Shown here: piece by piece, positions 3,250 through 50,791 of the stretch
Layout of the letters: every line of letters starts with the position of its first letter
Position numbering within the stretch: position 1 is the stretch's first letter
Assembly: GCA_015233195.1 (NCBI GenBank)
Contig: JADFYE010000010.1
Location: forward strand, 9,869 to 73,868
Length of the DNA: 64,000 nt
Reading direction: 5' to 3'
Source of the DNA: Candidatus Omnitrophota bacterium
GTDB taxonomy: Bacteria > Omnitrophota > Gorgyraeia > Zapsychrales > Zapsychraceae
Position numbers and translations under genes: made by a program
Notes under the pieces: model-generated
The model's input: the letters and a program-made list of their open reading frames with translations, nothing else
What the model was told of the DNA's origin: nothing
Databases searched by the model: none

Positions 3250-5136
3250 CTAAGCAATTTTAACGTTTTTTTTCAAGTTCTCAACGGATTCTTTTAATAA
3301 ACGACAATACAGATCAAACCCTATACTTGCGATATAACCATGCTGTTCCTGTCCTAAAAGATTACCTGCCCCACGCAATTGCATATCCTCAAACGCGATT
3401 TTAAAACCAGCACCCAGCTCGCAATATTTTTCAATTGCTTCAATCCTCGCTTCAGCTTCCTGACTCAGTGATCGATGTGGCGGAATCAGAAAATAAGCAT
3501 ACGCTTCTCTAGTAAACCGCCCGACCCTGCCGCGCAATTGATGCAAATCCGCTAAACCAAAATGATCAGCGCGGTTAATTATCAAAGTATTAGCATTAGG
3601 AATATCAATACCAGACTCAATGATTGTGGTCGAGATTAAAACATCAACCGAACCTTCCAGCACCTGAATCATAATATGCTCAAGTTCTTTAGCAGACATT
3701 TGACCATGCCCAATAGCTATTCTCGCTTGCGGAACTAAACGTTTAATAATCGCTCCAATATGACTAATATCTTCGACACGGTTATGTATAAAGAACACTT
3801 GACCATGCCGCTTCACTTCCCGCTCGATCGCCTCTTTTATCAGATCCTCGTCGAATTCTTTAACAAAAGTTTTTACCGGTAACCTTTGCTGCGGCGGCGT
3901 ACTGATTACTGACATATCCCTCGCCCCAACCAAAGACATATGCAAAGTGCGCGGTATAGGCGTCGCGCTCATTGTTAAAACATCTGCCAACAAACGAAAA
4001 TGTTTTAATTTTTCTTTTGCCTTAACCCCAAACCGCTGTTCCTCATCAATAATAATCAGCCCTAAATCTTTAAACGAAATATCTTTTGATAAAAGCCGAT
4101 GCGTTCCAATTACCAAATCCACTTTACCATCCGCGAGGTCAACCACAATTTTTTGTTGTTCAGCTTTTGTTTTAAACCGGCTTAACATTGCTACCTTAAC
4201 CGGAAAATTATCCATGCGTCTTGTAAAATTGTAATAATGCTGTTCTGCCAAAATCGTAGTCGGAACCAACACTGCCACTTGTTTATGGTCCATAACTGCT
4301 TTAAATACCGCGCGCATCGCCACTTCAGTTTTACCAAACCCTACGTCGCCGCACAATAAACGATCCATTGGATAAATGGATTCCATATCACGCTTAACAT
4401 CTTCAATCGCCTTGATTTGATCTAAAGTTTCTTCAAAAGGAAACCCCTTTTCAAATTCTTTTTGCCAATCAGTATCAACGCTAAATGCATGTCCACGTAA
4501 ACTCGCCCGTACTGCCTGAGTATGCAACAACTCTGCAGCCATACGCTGCAATCTTTTTTGAATTTGCTGTTTAACCCTTTTCCATTCTGGACTGCCTAAC
4601 TTATAAACTCGAGGAGGACGCTTAGTAAAACTTACATACTTTTGTATCAAGTGGATATCATGTTTAGGCACAAACAATTTATCCCCGCCCTGATACTCAA
4701 TAACAAAATGTTCTTTTACTTCTTTCTGAACCTCAATGGTTTGTAGCCCAATAAACTTACCAATACCATGATAATTATGGACTACATAATCACCCTGCTG
4801 TATATCAACAAAATTATTTAAAGGAATATCTTCAGAAAATACGACCTTCTTATCAGTCCGTGCATGCGGTAAGACCATTACTATCTTATGTTCCCAAATA
4901 GCTTTACCAGAACGGATATTAACACTCGCGATGCGGGAAATTTTTTCATCATCAAAATCAATGCGGATGGGACCGTCAAAATTCACAGGATATATTTCAA
5001 TGATCTCTCCCCTGTGGGCATACTCTCCCTCTTGCAAAGCGTGACGGACGTTTTGATATTTTAATGCGGATAAATTGTTCAAGACCACATCTAAAGCTAT
5101 GGTCTGACCAACAAATAACTCAAGCGACTGGAACAT
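3250..5136 (-). CDS. mfd: transcription-repair coupling factor, compact form (628 aa)
   Basis: CarD/RID-like 'GDYVVHNYHGIGKFIGL..DKLFVP'. Helicase motifs 'GDVGFGKTEVA', 'DEEQRFG', 'SATPIPRT' and 'QLRGRVGR'. TRG-like 'FEDMQLRGAGNLLGQEQHG'. Confidence 0.88.
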   Translation of the reverse strand: MFQSLELFVGQTIALDVVLNNLSALKYQNVRHALQEGEYAHRGEIIEIYPVNFDGPIRIDFDDEKISRIASVNIRSGKAIWEHKIVMVLPHARTDKKVVFSEDIPLNNFVDIQQGDYVVHNYHGIGKFIGLQTIEVQKEVKEHFVIEYQGGDKLFVPKHDIHLIQKYVSFTKRPPRVYKLGSPEWKRVKQQIQKRLQRMAAELLHTQAVRASLRGHAFSVDTDWQKEFEKGFPFEETLDQIKAIEDVKRDMESIYPMDRLLCGDVGFGKTEVAMRAVFKAVMDHKQVAVLVPTTILAEQHYYNFTRRMDNFPVKVAMLSRFKTKAEQQKIVVDLADGKVDLVIGTHRLLSKDISFKDLGLIIIDEEQRFGVKAKEKLKHFRLLADVLTMSATPIPRTLHMSLVGARDMSVISTPPQQRLPVKTFVKEFDEDLIKEAIEREVKRHGQVFFIHNRVEDISHIGAIIKRLVPQARIAIGHGQMSAKELEHIMIQVLEGSVDVLISTTIIESGIDIPNANTLIINRADHFGLADLHQLRGRVGRFTREAYAYFLIPPHRSLSQEAEARIEAIEKYCELGAGFKIAFEDMQLRGAGNLLGQEQHGYIASIGFDLYCRLLKESVENLKKNVKIA

Positions 5137-15475: not shown

Positions 15476-15510
15476 GCATATCCTATCTTATATACATTTT
15501 TCAATTTGAT

Positions 15511-15938
15511 CCCTTCTACCCTTTGGGGAGAAGGTTAGGATGAGGGGATAATTTCTTCAATTTTATTTTCAATAACTTCGTAAACCCCATCCATGTTTAT
15601 CAGAACATCGTTATTTGCAAACCGCAAAATTTTTATGCCTTGAGATTCTAAATATTTACTTCGAGTTTTATCTTTACGCTCACCAATATCTTCATAATGC
15701 TGACCCCCATCTATTTCAATTGCTAATTTAATTGATGGAGCATAAAAATCGATTATGTAATTCCCGATTGAAAATTGTCTCCTAAATTTAATATTTTTAA
15801 TTTGTTGATTTCTAACATACAACCAAATTAATTTTTCAGCGTCTGTTTGCTCTTTACGAAGATCTCGACAATAATCAATATTCGGTCTTTTTGGCATTAC
15901 CCCTCACCCTAACCCTCTCCCCAGAGGCTGGAGAGGGG
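15511..15938 (-). mobile_element. DUF559 endonuclease gene bracketed by inverted ~38-nt hairpin repeats (cassette-like insertion in the his operon)
   Basis: Left arm 15511-15547 is the reverse complement of right arm 15900-15938 at most positions. The gene fills the interval almost exactly. The same repeat occurs solo elsewhere. Confidence 0.45.
15535..15897 (-). CDS. DUF559 (Vsr/restriction-endonuclease-fold) protein
   Basis: 'TDAEKLIW..VRN', 'FRRQFSIGNYIIDFY', 'LAIEIDGGQH' and 'GIKILRFANNDV' match the DUF559 pattern. Confidence 0.85.
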   Translation of the reverse strand: MPKRPNIDYCRDLRKEQTDAEKLIWLYVRNQQIKNIKFRRQFSIGNYIIDFYAPSIKLAIEIDGGQHYEDIGERKDKTRSKYLESQGIKILRFANNDVLINMDGVYEVIENKIEEIIPSS

Positions 15939-15961
15939 ACTTTCCCATCTATCTATACTCT

Positions 15962-16567: not shown

Positions 16568-17179
16568 TTAATCAATTATACCTTTTGTCGATGGAACAGA
16601 ATCTGGTCTTGCTGGATTGATCCGGGTTGCTTCATGCAAAGCCAAACCCAAGGCTTTAAACGCAGCCTCTAAGTTGGTATGCAGATCTTCGCTAGTTCCC
16701 TCGATCTTTACGTTAACAGTAGCGCCGATATTATGCGCGAAAGATTCAAGGAAATGTTCAAGGTAAGCCATAGTATAGCCATCTTCATTTTTAATATTCA
16801 CTTTATCCATATTTTCAATGGTCAAAGTCAAATAACCCCGACCGCTAATATCAACCACTGCCCGTCCTAAAGTAGACTCCATCGGAGCATATGCAGAACC
16901 AAAACGTTTAATCCCTTGCATTTCACCCAAAGCTTTTTTAAACAATTTGCCTAACACTATACCAATATCTTCATTAGTATGATGGATATCAATTTCCAAA
17001 TCAGCTTTCTTCACTGCCAATTCCAAATCAAAACAAGCATGGAACGCGAACAGATCCAACATATGGTCGAGCAAACCAATATTAGTCTTGATCTTACTCT
17101 TGCCCCGCCCATCAATATTTATTGACGCGGTAATTTCAGTTTCTTTACTTTTTCGCTCCAGCTGCGCTTTTCGTTCCAT
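16568..17179 (-). CDS. hisB: imidazoleglycerol-phosphate dehydratase
   Basis: 'HMLD', 'HHTNEDIGI' and 'HNIGA/HFLESF' IGPD motifs. The track start 17227 is a GTG inside the repeat (translated 'PSPASGERARVRG'). ATG 17179 ('MERKAQLERK') is preferred. Confidence 0.92.
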   Translation of the reverse strand: MERKAQLERKSKETEITASINIDGRGKSKIKTNIGLLDHMLDLFAFHACFDLELAVKKADLEIDIHHTNEDIGIVLGKLFKKALGEMQGIKRFGSAYAPMESTLGRAVVDISGRGYLTLTIENMDKVNIKNEDGYTMAYLEHFLESFAHNIGATVNVKIEGTSEDLHTNLEAAFKALGLALHEATRINPARPDSVPSTKGIID

Positions 17180-17183
17180 ATTT

Positions 17184-17221
17184 CCCCTCACCCTTGCCCT
17201 CTCCCCAGAGGCTGGAGAGGG
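17184..17221. repeat. 38-nt CU/GA hairpin repeat (cccctcaccc..ccctctcc..ggagaggg)
   Basis: One of 7 copies: 15511-15547, 15900-15938, 17184-17221, 21835-21871, 21897-21933, 41684-41722 and 50543-50575. Confidence 0.9.
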
Positions 17222-17246
17222 AATCACTTTAATTTATTATTTAAAA

Positions 17247-17423
17247 ACAAATTTTTAAAAATTAAAAGGCGCAGGTATTTAAGCGGACGTTGATAATTCG
17301 AGCGGGCACGGTTTGGACGAGTTTTATCGTCCAAGAGCGAGAATTATCTTCGAGCGTAGTTTAGTCTCGCAGGGACTAGCAAGCGTTCCGCGAAATACCG
17401 AAGACTTTTATCTAAAAATTTGT
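17247..17423. repeat. ~170-nt branched-hairpin intergenic element, copy 1 (candidate structured RNA or MITE)
   Basis: Terminal inverted repeats acaaattttt/aaaaatttgt. Nested helices aaaag.c/g.ctttt, ggtattt/aaatacc, gcgga/tccgc and gataattc/gaattatc. Two tip hairpins. Confidence 0.85.
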
Positions 17424-17438
17424 TAATTATATCACTTT

Positions 17439-18662
17439 TTACTTAAATCTAACCTTGACCGATTCAGAATGTTTCTCCAATCCTTCCAAACTCGCAATCT
17501 GAATTATAGCATCTTTTACCTTTTCCAAAGCCTTTTTTGAATACGAAATAACATGACTCTTTTTCATAAAATGATCAGTGCCTAGACCAGAAAAATACTT
17601 TGCAGATCCTAAAGTCGGCAGAACATGACTGGGTCCTGCAGCATAATCCCCTAAAGCTGTTGGACTGTACGGTCCCAAAAATATCGCCCCAGCATTTATT
17701 ATACGTTTAGCAATAACATTTGGATTATTAGTCATAATTTCTAAATGTTCAGGCGCTATTTTATTAGCAATATCAGCAGCTTCCTCAATATTTTTCGCTA
17801 ATACACCATATCCAGCCGGCACACGATTACGCATTTGTTTCAATAATTGTTTTGAAGTTGAAATCAAAATTGCTAATCCACCCAAATGCTCTATCTGCCC
17901 TTCCATATCTGCAGCAATAAAATCCGGATTAGAATGACGGTTAGCAATGATCGCTAACTCCGACGGTCCAGCTAACATATCAATATCCACAAACCCAAAA
18001 ACCTGACGTTTCGCTTCAGTAACATACATATTACCCGGACCAACAATTTTATGCACCCTAGGTATAGTCTTAGTACCTAAAGCCAAAGCCGCGATCGCTT
18101 GCGCTCCTCCAACTTTATAAATTTCATTCACCTTTAATAAATTCGCAACAGCCAATACATAAGGATTAACATGACCATTTTTATTCGGTGGAGTCATGAT
18201 AACAATACGTTTAACACCTGCGACTTTAGCTGGGATTACTGTCATATATACCGTCGACACTAACGGAGCAGTGCCTGCTGGAATATAAATACCAACCGCG
18301 TCCAAAGGTAAAATTGTTTCTCTTAATATAACCCCTTCTTCAGCTTTAACAAAACATGGACTCTGTTTATGAGTCTTGTAGAACGTAGTCACGTTCTTAA
18401 TTATCATTTTTAAATTTTCAACAAAATCAGTCGTGATATTCTGGAACGCAGCGCTTATCTCGCTTTCAGGCACCCGCAAATCTTTGGCTGTCAGCTTAAC
18501 TCCGTCGAACTTACGAGTATATTTAATCACCGCGTCATCGCCCTGCAAACGCACATCTTCGATTATTTGACGGACTTTCTCGCCCAAGCTTCTTTTATGT
18601 ACTTGAACATCACGGTTATAAATATCTTGTAAACTTTTTCCGGTTTGAGTCAGAATTTTCAT
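17439..18662 (-). CDS. hisD: histidinol dehydrogenase
   Basis: 407 aa. 'GGAQAIAALA.GT', 'IVGPGN.YV..AK', 'AGPSE' and 'EH' motifs. Confidence 0.93.
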   Translation of the reverse strand: MKILTQTGKSLQDIYNRDVQVHKRSLGEKVRQIIEDVRLQGDDAVIKYTRKFDGVKLTAKDLRVPESEISAAFQNITTDFVENLKMIIKNVTTFYKTHKQSPCFVKAEEGVILRETILPLDAVGIYIPAGTAPLVSTVYMTVIPAKVAGVKRIVIMTPPNKNGHVNPYVLAVANLLKVNEIYKVGGAQAIAALALGTKTIPRVHKIVGPGNMYVTEAKRQVFGFVDIDMLAGPSELAIIANRHSNPDFIAADMEGQIEHLGGLAILISTSKQLLKQMRNRVPAGYGVLAKNIEEAADIANKIAPEHLEIMTNNPNVIAKRIINAGAIFLGPYSPTALGDYAAGPSHVLPTLGSAKYFSGLGTDHFMKKSHVISYSKKALEKVKDAIIQIASLEGLEKHSESVKVRFK

Positions 18663-21828: not shown

Positions 21829-21834
21829 TTTTAT

Positions 21835-21933
21835 CTCTTCTCCCCTCCGGGGAGAAGATTAAGATGAGGGGTTTTAATAATTTTTATTTTTTAATTCCCC
21901 TCACCCTGCCCTCTCCCCATAGGTTGGAGAGGG
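21835..21933. repeat. inverted pair of the 38-nt hairpin repeat with a 25-nt AT-only spacer (gene-less counterpart of the DUF559 cassette arms)
   Basis: 21835-21871 (ctcttctcccctccggggagaagattaagatgagggg) and 21897-21933 (cccctcaccctgccctctccccataggttggagaggg) have the same relative orientation as the arms at 15511 and 15900. Confidence 0.85.
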
Positions 21934-21934
21934 T

Positions 21935-38569: not shown

Positions 38570-39194
38570 TGTGTTTTTCCATTAACTCAACTGCTGAGCG
38601 ATCCATCTCATTAATAAACTGCGTTATCCTGTACTCACAATAATTATAAGCAATAAAAGCCAAAATACCGACCAACATGCCAGCTACTGTAGTTAAAATC
38701 GCGGACCACACTCCAAAAGCAAGATCTCCAGTAGTGAATGGCTGTAAAGCTTTAGTCTTTACTTCAATCGTACGAAAAATTACTGCCATACCAGTAGCTG
38801 TTCCTAATAATCCGAGCAATGGACTTATATACGTTATGCTAGAAAGAAAAATAAGATTGATTTTAAACTCCGGAATCAGCAAATCGCCCGCGTTTTTCAT
38901 GCTTTCTTTTATTTCAATTCTCGACGCGCTGAACTTAATTAATCCGGCTTTAATAATCTTAGCTGAAGGAGAACTACTGCCTTCACATATCGCGTAAGCT
39001 TCCTTAAGTTTATTGAGACTAATCAAATCAAATACCCGGTCTTTTAATAACTGCACGTCGGCTCTTATTGAATTAAAATACATCAGTCTTTCAATAAAAA
39101 TCGTCAAAGTTATCACCGAACATAATATGATCGGGATCAAAATCGGTCCGCCGGAAATTATCAATTGAAAAAAATTCATAGCACTATTTTCCAT
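38562..39194 (-). CDS. MotA/TolQ/ExbB-family proton channel
   Basis: 3 TM segments. 'ISPLLGLLGTATGM' and 'AILTTVAGMLVGI' signatures. Confidence 0.85.
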   Translation of the reverse strand: MENSAMNFFQLIISGGPILIPIILCSVITLTIFIERLMYFNSIRADVQLLKDRVFDLISLNKLKEAYAICEGSSSPSAKIIKAGLIKFSASRIEIKESMKNAGDLLIPEFKINLIFLSSITYISPLLGLLGTATGMAVIFRTIEVKTKALQPFTTGDLAFGVWSAILTTVAGMLVGILAFIAYNYCEYRITQFINEMDRSAVELMEKHNV

Positions 39195-41676
39195 TCGTTG
39201 TAATTACTTTATTATTAATCCAATCCAATCGCTCTTGCGCGAATTTTTTCTCCTCTACATTATAACTAAGCACTTTCTGATAAATCTGTTTTGCTTTAAT
39301 CCACTCATCCTGGTCTTCAAATATTCTCGCAACTCTAAGGTACGCCTTAACTGCCCATAAAGTCTGATCAATATAAAGATATGGAATCTTCAAATATTCG
39401 TCGAGAGCCTTATCCGTGTTATTCATCAACTCATAATCGTCTGCCAGACTAAACCTGATCTCAGCGTCAGGCGTGTGGCTCTGTCCTTTTACTGATTTCA
39501 AAGCATTTTCATAATATTGTGCTGCCTTTTGCTGATCATTCTGGCTCTTATATATTTCCGCGATTTTAAATAACGCATCTTTTGCAAAACTTGGGACTTT
39601 ATCCAGCATAGTCTTATACGTAGCAATCGCTGCATCAGGATCCATTTTTTGGGATAGAATTTCAGCTATCGCGCTCTTAGCTTTAACAAATATTTCCGGA
39701 GAAACTGTCTCAGAAATATTTTTAAACGACTCAATCGCTGCCTTATAGTCATTATTAGCTTTATATGCCTGACCTAAAGAATAATATACTTCGACCAGCC
39801 TCTTATTACCGGGGAAACTTTTAATGAATTCATTATAATGACTGATCGCGTAATTATAATCTCCGGCTTCCAAATAATGGTCGCCCAGCCAAATTAAAGC
39901 TTCTTGTCCAGCGTCGGAATCATGATATTTTGTTGCAACATTCCTAAATCTTTTCAAAGCTTCATTAATATTTCCGTTTTTATATAAACACTTTGCGATA
40001 TGCAATTCTGAATTTTTTACAATATTAGAATCACTCGGATACTCCTTTATTATTTTCTGAAAGACTGCTGCAGCTTCCGTGTATTTAGCTAAATTAAAAT
40101 TTGATAATCCTAATATATAATTCGCTTCTGAACGAAACTCGCTGCTATCCGTAGATTCTTTAAGAAAAGCACTCGCCTGCTCCATAGCGGTCTGCCATTG
40201 TTCCTGTTTAAAATATGCGACTGCAAGATAATATTTAGCGTCTTTTAAATATTTACTTTTTGGAAAGTTGGCTTGTAAAGTCTGTAAAGATAAAGTAGCA
40301 GCTTCGATCTTATTTTGTTTTAATAGGGTTACTGCCTGACGATATTGAACATAATCCGTATATGGACCAGCCGGAAATTCACCTAATATCTTGTCATAAA
40401 CTTCTACTGCTTGGTCCAACTGTCCGGCTTCCTGATACGCGTCTCCAATCTGGGTCATAGCGCTGATACGAATCGTATTATTATCAGTCTTACTTTGAAT
40501 GGTCTCAAAAGTATGAATTGAAAGATCCAGCGCCCCAGCTTTCATGTAACTCCACCCTAACGCGAAATAAGCTTTCTCCACAATATCAGGATAATCAGCG
40601 GACGCTTCATATTTATTTATTATCGCCCGGTAATCTTTTATTGCTGCATCATATTTCTGTTCTTGATAATAAGTGTTGCCTCTGCCTAATAATGCTTCGG
40701 GTACTCTCGGGCTATCTTGATATTTATTGACTATCTCAGAATAAGCGGACAAAGCCTTATCCACATTATTAGTCTCAGAATACAAAGATGCCAATCCCAA
40801 ATAAACATCATCTGCAGGTATACTCTTACTCTGCGCAAAACTTAAAGCATCGTTAAAATTTTTTTCTGAAAGATCATATTTCCCCAACTTTAAATAACAC
40901 CAACCCAAGCTTACCTTAGACGCAAAAATAGTCTTATTATCATACGATAAGCTCGCGGATTTTGCATAATACCCTACCGCATCCAACGGCTGGTTAAGAT
41001 AATAAAATGATTCTCCAATATAAAAATATGCCTCAGGATGTTTGACTGAATCCGGATAAGTATTTATATATTTTATGAAATGTTCCGTAGTTTTTTCATA
41101 ATTTTTTTGGGTATATAATATCTCACCTATTTTAAAAGCAGCGTCTTCAGCTAACTGATTGTCTGGAAATTTTTTTAAAATTTTTTCAAATATATCCTGA
41201 GCCTTCGTATAATCATTCTGAACAAAATATGTCCAGCCTAGAGAATAATAAGCCTGCGGCGCGTAAATCGAATCCGGATACGCGTCAATAACTTGTTTAT
41301 ACATTTCTTCAGCCTGTTTATAGTCCGAACCTTTTAAATACGTCTCACCCAGCCAGAATAAAGTAGCATCTTTAAATTGGGAGTATTGACTGGTTTCTTT
41401 AAAATAATTGAATGCCTTTAAATATTCACTTTTGAAAAAATAACATTGTCCTAATAAAAGTTTTGACTCAACTGACTTCGTGGTCTGAGGATAGTCCCGC
41501 ATTAATTGTTCGATATACCGGATGGATATATCATAGAACCCGTCGTCAAAAGCCTTTTGCGCTACTAAAAATAATTCTTCATCGCCTTCGGCAAAGGCGT
41601 CACGCGCGGTAAAACTAACTGCGGTTAAAACGACAAAAATAAAAACCAATATTATTCTTAAAAACTTCTTATTCAT
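39184..41676 (-). CDS. large secreted TPR protein (YbgF/BamD-type repeats)
   Basis: Signal peptide, then repeated '..YP(D/K)S....EA.Y.LG..Y' units. The track start 41691 is the GTG inside the repeat. ATG 41676 ('MNKKFLRI') is preferred. Confidence 0.75.
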   Translation of the reverse strand: MNKKFLRIILVFIFVVLTAVSFTARDAFAEGDEELFLVAQKAFDDGFYDISIRYIEQLMRDYPQTTKSVESKLLLGQCYFFKSEYLKAFNYFKETSQYSQFKDATLFWLGETYLKGSDYKQAEEMYKQVIDAYPDSIYAPQAYYSLGWTYFVQNDYTKAQDIFEKILKKFPDNQLAEDAAFKIGEILYTQKNYEKTTEHFIKYINTYPDSVKHPEAYFYIGESFYYLNQPLDAVGYYAKSASLSYDNKTIFASKVSLGWCYLKLGKYDLSEKNFNDALSFAQSKSIPADDVYLGLASLYSETNNVDKALSAYSEIVNKYQDSPRVPEALLGRGNTYYQEQKYDAAIKDYRAIINKYEASADYPDIVEKAYFALGWSYMKAGALDLSIHTFETIQSKTDNNTIRISAMTQIGDAYQEAGQLDQAVEVYDKILGEFPAGPYTDYVQYRQAVTLLKQNKIEAATLSLQTLQANFPKSKYLKDAKYYLAVAYFKQEQWQTAMEQASAFLKESTDSSEFRSEANYILGLSNFNLAKYTEAAAVFQKIIKEYPSDSNIVKNSELHIAKCLYKNGNINEALKRFRNVATKYHDSDAGQEALIWLGDHYLEAGDYNYAISHYNEFIKSFPGNKRLVEVYYSLGQAYKANNDYKAAIESFKNISETVSPEIFVKAKSAIAEILSQKMDPDAAIATYKTMLDKVPSFAKDALFKIAEIYKSQNDQQKAAQYYENALKSVKGQSHTPDAEIRFSLADDYELMNNTDKALDEYLKIPYLYIDQTLWAVKAYLRVARIFEDQDEWIKAKQIYQKVLSYNVEEKKFAQERLDWINNKVITTNGK

Positions 41677-41683
41677 ATAACAA

Positions 41684-41722
41684 CCCCTCACCCTAACCCT
41701 CTCCCCATAGGCTGGAGAGGGG
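41684..41722. repeat. 38-nt CU/GA hairpin repeat
   Basis: cccctcaccctaaccctctccccataggctggagagggg. On the minus strand it ends GAGGGG, 7 nt before the TPR gene ATG. Confidence 0.9.
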
Positions 41723-41773: not shown

Positions 41774-41948
41774 GCAAATTTTTTATATTAAAAGACGCAG
41801 GTATTTCAGCGGACGTTGATAATTCGAGCAGGCACGGTTCGTACATGCTTCACCGTACGAGAGCGAGAATTATCGTCGAGCGCAGTTAGACTAGCCGGGG
41901 CTAACCAGCGTTCCGCAAAATACCTAAGTCTTTTAACCAAAAATTTGC
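41774..41948. repeat. ~170-nt branched-hairpin intergenic element, copy 2
   Basis: TIR gcaaattttt/aaaaatttgc. P1 aaaagac/gtctttt. Tip hairpins tcgtac/gtacga and gttag/ctaac. Confidence 0.85.
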
Positions 41949-49813: not shown

Positions 49814-50536
49814 CTATTCTAATCCCAACACTTGTTTCATTGTAAACAGCCCGTTTTTCTTATCCATGACAAATTTAGCTGCAGCCAGACCGCCTTTCGC
49901 GAACATGCCGCGGTTTTTCGCGTTATGGATCAGCGTCAATGTATCTTCCGGAGTCTCAAACGTGATCTTATGATATCCGACGACTTCGCCTTCACGAATT
50001 GATTCAACTGGCTTGACTTTTAAATTAGAAAATTTCTCCGCGATTTGAAGCATGGTCTTAGCCGTCCCTGACGGCGCGTCTTTTTTATGGATATGATGCG
50101 TTTCTGTAATCTTGATGTCATCAATTCCGACTAGCATTTTCGATGCCAACTCAATCATCTTGAATAAAACATTAACGCCGATTGACATGTTCGAAGAAAA
50201 TACGATCGGGATTTTTTTAGACGCTGATTCGATTTTTTTTACCTGCTCCTCATTTAATCCTGTTGTTCCAATGACCATGCGCACCCCGTATTTCAAACAT
50301 ACTTCTAAATTCTGCATCGTAGCCTCAGGAGATGTGAATTCGATCAGTACGTCGCAACCCTTCAACGCATTGTTATCCGCCGAAGGCATAACACCGCAGA
50401 CACTTTCTTTGATCTTGGGATGCGTCGCAATTTCAAAAAGCGTTTTGATATGGAACCTTGGATCTTTTTTTGCTGAATCACAAATCGCCTGACCCACCCG
50501 ACCGTGACACCCGCTAATTGCTAATTTAATGCTCAT
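49814..50536 (-). CDS. dapB: 4-hydroxy-tetrahydrodipicolinate reductase
   Basis: 'KLAISGCHGRVG', 'VIGTTG' and 'E.HH..K.DAPSGTA'. The track start 50566 lies in the repeat. ATG 50536 is preferred. Confidence 0.93.
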   Translation of the reverse strand: MSIKLAISGCHGRVGQAICDSAKKDPRFHIKTLFEIATHPKIKESVCGVMPSADNNALKGCDVLIEFTSPEATMQNLEVCLKYGVRMVIGTTGLNEEQVKKIESASKKIPIVFSSNMSIGVNVLFKMIELASKMLVGIDDIKITETHHIHKKDAPSGTAKTMLQIAEKFSNLKVKPVESIREGEVVGYHKITFETPEDTLTLIHNAKNRGMFAKGGLAAAKFVMDKKNGLFTMKQVLGLE

Positions 50537-50542
50537 AAAATT

Positions 50543-50575
50543 CCCCTCACCTAACCTCTCCCACAAAGGGAGAGG
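50543..50575. repeat. 38-nt CU/GA hairpin repeat (shorter variant)
   Basis: cccctcacctaacctctcccacaaagggagagg. Its minus-strand GAGGGG lies 6 nt before the dapB ATG. Confidence 0.85.
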
Positions 50576-50622: not shown

Positions 50623-50791
50623 ACAAATTTTTTAAATAAAAGTCGAAGGTATTTAAGCGGACATTGGTAATTCGAGCGGGCACGGTTCGTACGCCAAAAG
50701 CGTACGAGAGCGAGAATTACCGCGAGCGTAGTTTAACACGCTGGGTTAAACAAGCGTTCCGCGAAATACCGAAGACTTTTAAAAAAATTTG
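50623..50791. repeat. ~170-nt branched-hairpin intergenic element, copy 3
   Basis: P1 aaaagtc/gactttt. P4 ggtaattc/gaattacc, a double compensatory change relative to copies 1 and 2. Tip hairpins tcgtacgc/gcgtacga and gtttaac/gttaaac. Confidence 0.85.

Follow-up and report, generated by a model that had tools for sequence, protein, structure and literature searches.

The DNA analysed here is a stretch of 64,000 nucleotides (nt) from contig JADFYE010000010.1 of a Candidatus Omnitrophota bacterium (hereafter the window; G+C content 36.5%). It carries seven copies of a short pyrimidine/purine hairpin repeat with a G-rich tail, and two of these copies enclose a gene for a DUF559 protein that is inserted into a histidine operon. 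All seven were recovered at the same coordinates as in a preliminary description of the sequence, which had presented them as hairpins supplying Shine-Dalgarno (SD)-like sequences and false start codons. The repeat family is real; what that description missed was its identity as BoxC, the inversion of two copies, the cassette built around the DUF559 gene and the membership of three apparently solitary copies in a longer composite repeat. Five copies lie on the minus strand and two (15511-15547 and 21835-21871) on the plus strand. The form described as common to the transcribed strand is thus right for five of the seven; since the other two are on the plus strand, minus-strand mRNA shows their C-rich complement. 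All seven copies are intergenic, save for a 13-nt overlap of one with the 3′ end of the DUF559 gene, and all are found inside co-directional operons.

The DUF559 gene (15535-15897, minus strand) lies between hisH and hisA in the order hisD, hisB, hisH, DUF559, hisA. Its product contains a Vsr-like PD-(D/E)XK endonuclease domain (Pfam PF04480, E = 1.7e-34), matches PDB entry 3hrl_A (E = 7e-17) and scores below the cut-off of NCBIfam NF007294. At the 5′ end of the gene, the copy at 15900-15938 (minus strand) terminates in the tail GGGTGAGGGG, which stops 2 nt before the DUF559 ATG (15897), while at the 3′ end an inverted copy (15511-15547, plus strand) also directs its tail inward. The cassette spanning 15511-15938 is made up of two inverted BoxCs, tails inward, around the gene, whose reading frame ends as ...IIPSS within the downstream BoxC; its TAA stop codon is the complement of the TTA loop. 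A second tails-inward pair occupies the recA-recX junction. Its left member (21897-21933, minus strand) lies 1 nt past the recA stop, and its right member (21835-21871, plus strand) is inverted and separated from it by a 25-nt spacer, with the purine arm of the hairpin ending 6 nt before the recX ATG (21828). The remaining three copies, all on the minus strand, form the 3′ ends of composite repeats at 17184-17221, 4 nt upstream of the hisB ATG (17179); at 41684-41722, 7 nt upstream of the ATG (41676) of a TPR gene; and at 50543-50575, where a copy with 8-nt arms and a short loop is found 6 nt upstream of the dapB ATG (50536).

These copies share a three-part architecture that can be searched for without reference to a fixed sequence. 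A triplex-motif scanner was set to find an 8-nt pyrimidine arm, a loop of 3-12 nt, a purine arm, a loop of 1-5 nt and a mirror third strand, with at most one mismatch in each and a third segment forming allowed purine-motif triads with the purine arm. In the window it returned exactly the seven copies, and it returned none in 20 block-shuffles of the window. A 21-nt core pattern gave four matches against 0.02 expected.

Beyond the window, searching a single genome of each species for GGAGAGGG-N2-3-GGGTGAGGGG retrieved at least 120 loci spanning Proteobacteria, Planctomycetota, Verrucomicrobiota, Acidobacteriota, Nitrospirota, Chloroflexota, Cyanobacteria, Omnitrophota, Elusimicrobiota, Deinococcus and others. 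Every copy in these loci has a CCCTCTCCCC/GGGGAGAGGG hairpin upstream, and conservation stops there. In E. coli the repeat is present in 5409 of 5426 complete genomes, at a median of 17 places per genome. Matching sequences are listed as TM_ECO in Table 1 of Holder et al. 2015 (PMC4666352), where TM_ECO is equated with a motif earlier named BoxC and then PIT, for potential intrastrand triplex; BoxC is also counted among the repeat families of E. coli (PMC2267715). On these matches, the window repeat is assigned to BoxC/PIT/TM_ECO, a known family in a new host, with variant loops. The strict published pattern, CCCTCNCCC N3-6 GGGNGAGGG N3 GGGNGAGGG, has no match in the window. Its G-rich half, GGGNGAGGG N3 GGGNGAGGG, is exact in three window copies, and the others deviate by 8-nt arms, by a second loop of 2 nt or by G-to-A changes that recur, mirrored, in each of the three segments; the window copies are accordingly classed by sequence as variants within the family rather than members of the strict pattern. 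They also behave like the family, being multi-copy, intergenic, present in both orientations and frequently arranged as inverted pairs of unlike members. Both tails-inward pairs of the window combine one GGAGAGGG-type and one GGAGAAG-type copy, and a count of BoxC pairs gave 57 inverted and 9 on the same strand.

The E. coli element has been characterized experimentally. In vitro, circular dichroism and nuclear magnetic resonance show that one strand by itself adopts a stable purine-motif triplex; the element's distance to open reading frames (ORFs) varies from 10 to 310 nt without trend; and TM_ECO loci are rearranged more than controls among E. coli strains (PMC4666352). According to Hoyne & Maher 2002, as reported in PMC4666352, PIT elements showed neither promoter nor terminator activity, nor any effect in vivo. 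A side observation concerns "double-tailed" copies, such as those at 1137-1182 of locus L042 and 1708-1757 of locus L078 and in nine further loci among L001-L120, in which one hairpin has a mirror tail on both sides. There the strand-specific motifs overlap by −21 to −26 nt, so a triplex would be possible on either DNA strand.

The constraint on the third segment separates a DNA-level reading of the repeat from an RNA-level one. A triplex needs the tail to be the mirror of the purine arm, and an SD switch needs it to be a direct copy. Across the seven window copies, 62 of 62 triads are allowed (G.G-C, A.A-T or T.A-T) and 61 of 62 Watson-Crick pairs are kept over four stem variants. The stem compensation noted in the preliminary description is therefore genuine and extends into the tail, which changes in step with the stem: the purine arms GGAGAGGG, GGGGAGAAGG, GGGGAGAAGA and GGGAGAGG go with the tails GGGTGAGG, GGATGAGGGG, AGATGAGGGG and GGTGAGGG, respectively. 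Canonical arms read the same when mirrored and cannot tell a mirror from a direct copy. In a larger test, pyrimidine/purine hairpins were found without using the tail, and only non-canonical, asymmetric arms were kept; the mirror fitted better in 77 and the direct copy in 14 (sign test, p = 1e-11). Distinct families follow the mirror rule, including AAGAGGGG with GGGGAGTT, AAGGGGGG with GGGGGGATT and GGGGAGGA with AGGTGGGG. T substitutes for A in the tail, which fits T.A-T triads and cannot pair with the C-rich arm. Because the tail obeys the mirror rule and purine-motif triplexes do not form in RNA (PMC4666352), what is under constraint would be DNA in single-stranded form, or else a protein reading it.

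The analysis is most useful for showing that BoxC brackets DUF559 genes in a set orientation. The survey covered 80 metagenomic loci with relatives 46-59% identical to the window protein, a closer alignment set being used after a first set proved too diverse. A co-oriented BoxC was found within 80 nt of the DUF559 start in 63 of the 79 loci with a 5′ flank, an inverted BoxC at the DUF559 end in 60 of the 70 with a 3′ flank, and a BoxC on both sides in 52 of the 69 with both flanks. The background density of 0.286 BoxC per kb leads to an expectation of about 2% per side. Of 66 loci in which the distance could be measured, 34 have a tail that stops 0-8 nt ahead of the DUF559 start codon. BoxC type also co-varies with the DUF559 protein (Mantel r = 0.26, reached in none of 2000 permutations), which is compatible with, and not proof of, DUF559 acting on the repeat. 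About one third of 100 database homologues, judged by eye, end in a peptide encoded by the C-rich strand of BoxC, and these tails use all three frames (PSP*, PHLNPLPxGERK and PLTxILSPxGRG); several database proteins begin VRGM or MRGM, the same artefact as in the window. In the reverse direction, 853 kb of BoxC-seeded loci contained two DUF559 genes, both abutting a BoxC (a single-query tblastn search gave three matches, of which a hidden Markov model confirmed two).

The arrangement can also be recognized in E. coli K-12. The ycjD reading frame there runs into a degenerate BoxC arm, closing with ...RRSPSP*, and the space between ycjD and fabI holds a full BoxC about 170 nt further downstream. 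YcjD detects Vsr in comparison (PMC1189080). The interval from the degenerate arm to the full BoxC contains a partial duplication of the 3′ end of ycjD (GAGACGGTGCTGGAGAATATTC..., positions 2206-2440 of locus L122, which is NC_000913.3 1349000-1353000), and immediately upstream of the ycjD start is a perfect palindrome of 16 bp (CACCTCATTCTGACAA/TTGTCAGAATGAGGTG). In the metagenomic loci (L123-L202), the sequence just outside the 3′ BoxC often begins with GGTAA(A) or AGTAA (e.g., ggtaaaag, agtaaggag, ggtaaaac), which may mark a conserved edge of the cassette or a site favoured for insertion. In the window, the flanks at 15476-15510 and 15939-15961 are loosely alike (GTATAGATAGATGG vs GTATATAAGATAGGAT), a likeness that may go back to a duplicated and since degenerated insertion site or may be fortuitous in AT-rich DNA. 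PADLOC gave only weak domain-level matches (DpdF, mREase_II) and no defence-system assignment. A literature search, thin on subscription journals, found no paper linking DUF559 or YcjD with BoxC, which is not proof of novelty.

Comparison with three related Omnitrophota, whose HisH proteins are 66-71% identical to that of the window, provides the corresponding empty sites. The gene order recA ... recX-alaS-hisD-hisB-hisH-hisA-hisF-hisI is common to all. In the relatives, hisH either overlaps hisA by 4 nt or is separated from it by 9 nt, the hisD-hisB gap is 2 nt in two and 58 nt in the third, and no BoxC was found in 57 kb. Given the empty sites and the relatives devoid of BoxC, the cassette, the doublet and the other copies are lineage-specific insertions. 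Between recA and recX the relatives carry an HtrA-type (trypsin-PDZ) protease gene (the regions compared being 3516-5018 of locus L203 and 3439-4920 of L205); the window has in its place a 106-nt spacer (21829-21934) filled by the BoxC doublet, so that on gene order the HtrA-type gene has been lost or moved at this BoxC-bearing junction. As for the general layout of the window, the minus strand carries 57 of 59 crude gene calls, with many junctions overlapping or only a few nt long; such a compact, co-directional arrangement is typical of a replication-strand-biased region.

The copies upstream of hisB, the TPR gene and dapB belong to a composite repeat of about 250 nt, of which they form the 3′ ends. 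The intergenic regions that contain them measure 259, 278 and 310 nt and are 82-90% identical over about 170-190 nt upstream of the BoxC. Each holds a 147-nt structured core on the minus strand (17263-17410, 41789-41935 and 50637-50781, respectively), located 40-60 nt upstream of the BoxC and separated from it by an AT-rich spacer of variable length. The predicted fold of the core is multi-helical, with 47 pairs, 8 of which show double compensatory changes among only three copies, and its folding z-score is −3.5 relative to shuffles. A covariance model of the core detected only these three copies in the window and none in 460 kb of other loci, a set that covers both the relatives and the DUF559 loci; the core had no match in viral contigs and none in Rfam. 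Promoter and terminator scans of two of the three composites gave no more than shuffles did. An element resembling a miniature inverted-repeat transposable element (MITE), a non-coding RNA and a single-stranded DNA structure are candidate identities for it. The existence of the composite also disposes of a placement test within intergenic regions (p = 0.0013) as evidence of targeting, the regions themselves being the ~250-nt insertions.

The insertions also change how the relation of the repeat to start codons is to be read. As first described, the purine run sits 2-7 nt before five start codons, namely those of DUF559 (2 nt), hisB (4), recX (6), the TPR gene (7) and dapB (6); at recX, the proximity comes from the hairpin end of an inverted copy. 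An element inserted into a 2-nt junction, such as hisD-hisB in two of the relatives, must end beside a start codon. Once insertion explains the proximity, the non-trivial remainder is orientation: in all five cases the purine run faces the ATG, at 4-11 nt. As a general trait, the association did not hold up. Among 146 copies from other phyla, gene starts occurred 2-12 nt after the tail in 7.5% of cases, against 8.2% at random, with an ORF-based calling of starts that is crude in high-GC genomes. SDs of the GGAG type are used by this genome at only a minority of its genes. That the tail acts as a ribosome-binding site (RBS) is plausible, and we infer that it would really serve as one.

The repeat also generates false N-termini. 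The extended ORFs started at GTG or TTG codons within it (16568-17227, 39184-41691 and 49814-50566) do exist and are artefacts, as the preliminary description had proposed. At hisB, a GTG at 17227 produces a false 16-residue extension, and the HisB equivalog profiles begin at residue 17, which is the ATG; at the TPR gene, a GTG at 41691 yields a false "VRGCY" extension; and at dapB, a TTG at 50566 adds 10 false residues, the DapB profile beginning at residue 13 and the ATG being residue 11. A protein-coding reading of the repeat (PSP..GERG) was considered and rejected, as DUF559 tails read the same DNA in three frames and profiles begin after the repeat.

Taken together, these results lead us to favour, with a probability of roughly 0.6, a reading in which BoxC is a selfish repeat acting at the DNA level and the DUF559 cassette is its gene-carrying form. 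The succession of pyrimidine arm, loop, purine arm, short loop and mirroring G-rich segment would allow one DNA strand to fold as an intrastrand purine-motif triplex, and the patchy distribution of the repeat would be that of a selfish element. The gene-carrying form would consist of a BoxC with its tail inward, the gene for the Vsr-like DUF559 nuclease and an inverted BoxC, also with its tail inward; doublets such as that between recA and recX, and single copies, would be gene-less derivatives, analogous to REP/REPIN sequences and RAYT genes. Since the tail of the 5′ BoxC normally abuts the DUF559 start codon, the SD-like purine run would be part of the element's own design. Copies entering operon junctions that measure just 0-9 nt in relatives would, in this compact genome, inevitably have their ends beside the downstream start codon, and those whose purine run faces it probably survive by replacing the lost translational coupling. 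A more detailed version is tentative, and we place it somewhat below even odds: BoxC would comprise the terminal structures and gene-less derivatives of an unrecognised selfish cassette encoding a YcjD-like, Vsr-fold DUF559 nuclease that recognises the folded triplex, and in this Omnitrophota lineage the 5′ BoxC, by itself or joined to the 147-nt element, would in addition have been put to use as a portable ribosome-binding end.

The preliminary description had proposed a different role, in which the G-rich tail is an SD in mRNA and the CU-rich arm toggles between the purine arm, leaving the SD free, and the tail, occluding it. The long-loop copies at 15900, 17184 and 41684 (DUF559, hisB and the TPR gene) have an extra CCUCU in the loop, and RNAfold favours for them, by 3-5 kcal/mol, a minimum-energy fold in which the CU arm pairs with the tail around an inner hairpin, with a predicted probability of a free tail of 1e-4 to 8e-3. 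Two states thus exist on paper for these copies, five copies stop 2-7 nt before start codons, GGAG/AAGGAG-type SDs are in use at some genes of the organism, and roughly half of the 66 measurable loci have the tail directly against the DUF559 ATG. The folds are nonetheless inconsistent: short-loop copies (dapB, the element strand of 21835 and canonical DUF559 5′ copies elsewhere) are predicted to form a single static hairpin with the tail free at a probability of 0.7-0.99, so that predicted accessibility runs from 1e-4 at DUF559 to 0.99 at dapB. The conserved rule is the mirror and not the direct copy (77:14), the variant copies 15511 and 21835 are unable to form the alternative helix, and T for A in the tail suits triads and not pairing. 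The switch would also need a consistent position at start codons, whereas this holds for five of seven copies in the window, two copies are inverted, and neither other phyla nor E. coli show an excess. No ligand or signal was proposed and nothing suggests a trigger, PIT elements were without promoter or terminator activity or in vivo effect (Hoyne & Maher 2002, as reported in PMC4666352), and a scan of the whole window at Rfam 15 gathering scores gave no match, while an E-value scan of 17150-17460 gave sub-threshold chance matches only. With no conserved alternative helix, the models do not support the switch as a property of the family, the alternative pairing being available on paper for some copies only; we regard this explanation as quite unlikely, and the SD-like appearance of the repeat is probably a by-product.

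Two further explanations were weighed. The published view treats BoxC as a free-standing non-B-DNA motif with no dedicated protein and explains its persistence by a transient triplex that stalls replication or repair and causes local variation, DUF559 being incidental. It agrees with the in vitro triplex and the greater rearrangement of TM_ECO loci among E. coli strains (PMC4666352), with the loss of the relatives' HtrA-type gene at the junction now holding the doublet, and with the distance of most copies from any DUF559 gene. We consider it unlikely, as it leaves unexplained the near-identity of the sequence across phyla, the bracketing of 80-86% of DUF559 genes in a fixed tails-inward geometry where about 2% is expected, and the co-variation of protein and repeat. 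The other explanation makes BoxC a REP-like stabiliser of mRNA 3′ ends or an operon-internal punctuation hairpin, a role reflected in its positions after recA and DUF559. The hairpins are predicted to be stable (−13 to −21 kcal/mol), one copy lies 1 nt past the recA stop and another over the DUF559 stop, and all are intergenic within co-directional operons; yet no T-run follows the hairpins, no terminator-like matches appeared in the two composite regions scanned, PIT elements lacked terminator activity (Hoyne & Maher 2002, again through PMC4666352), and the mirror third segment is neither needed nor explained. This makes it very improbable.

Several observations weigh against the selfish-cassette reading itself. 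More than 98% of BoxC copies are not beside a DUF559 gene, and E. coli has 23 BoxCs and one ycjD; a weak association in this direction is expected if most copies are gene-less, as the cassette model supposes. A comparison around 57 cassettes gave no clear signal of target-site duplication (shared word of 4.09 vs 3.70 nt), and the surveyed loci represent one subfamily, which narrows the generality of the bracketing among DUF559 genes. The co-variation of protein and repeat could be explained by co-inheritance alone, and the recognition or mobilisation of BoxC by DUF559 is putative. For TM_ECO, an in vivo triplex was not detected and no mobility genes were found nearby (PMC4666352). Finally, RNA folding predicts base pairing for three of the five tails near start codons, an argument against an efficient SD.

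To our knowledge, BoxC has been without an assigned function or origin for some thirty years, its spread across phyla being likewise unexplained, and its literature reportedly includes Bergler 1992, Bachellier 1999 and Hoyne & Maher 2000 and 2002. With its oriented bracketing of DUF559 genes, BoxC gains a proposed origin that can be tested, and DUF559, a very common domain without assigned function, a candidate role. If the G-rich end acts as an RBS, a selfish repeat could enter tight operon junctions without silencing the downstream gene. There is also a practical consequence for annotation: BoxC creates false upstream starts (GTG/TTG) and false C-terminal tails, and masking it before gene calling would remove these artefacts.

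Among known systems, the closest is the E. coli BoxC/PIT/TM_ECO family itself, whose architecture is equal and whose sequence is nearly so, GGGAGAGGG-TTA-GGGTGAGGG being identical to E. coli type A. Tails-inward inverted pairs of differing members are frequent and the distribution among close relatives is patchy in both. The recA-recX doublet, with its 25-nt spacer, resembles the E. coli pairs, of which four of five are tails-inward with spacers of 16-27 nt (our own reading of the coordinates in Table 1 of PMC4666352). The window differs in its host, a metagenome-assembled genome of an Omnitrophota bacterium with 36.5% GC; in four copies with a 9-nt first loop and 8-nt arms; in copies 2-7 nt from start codons, a trend absent in E. 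coli; and in the fusion of three copies to the 147-nt core. SD-sequestering RNAs, such as ROSE and fourU thermometers or the RBS occlusion of IS200 and IS10, share a purine-rich RBS that can pair with upstream pyrimidines, a likeness predicted for the DUF559, hisB and TPR copies. Unlike them, the window repeat has no conserved alternative helix and no Rfam match, its folds disagree, and it co-varies by triplex rules.

On the protein side, DUF559 shares the Vsr-like PD-(D/E)XK fold family with the Vsr endonuclease, with Vsr-like homing endonucleases such as I-Bth0305I and with the "endonuclease-like protein" of PDB 3hrl. I-Bth0305I provides a precedent for a selfish site-specific nuclease with a Vsr fold. 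The window gene differs from these in that it has no intron or intein context and no T:G mismatch-repair partner methylase nearby. As a system, the nearest parallel is that of REP/BIME repeats and REPIN-RAYT (IS200/IS605-like) elements. These are also short palindromic intergenic repeats, often in inverted doublets, with a single-copy gene of nuclease or transposase type bracketed by inverted cognate repeats, a repeat type that co-varies with the protein and most copies gene-less. DUF559 is a Vsr-like PD-(D/E)XK protein and not an HUH Y1 transposase, so the BoxC cassette is not a RAYT system, only organised alike. BoxC moreover carries a third, mirror segment giving it triplex geometry, its sequence is kept across phyla where REPs are species-specific, and the action of DUF559 upon it is putative. 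If the proposal is true, BoxC and DUF559 would form a second, mechanistically different counterpart of REPIN-RAYT, and DUF559 would gain a function.

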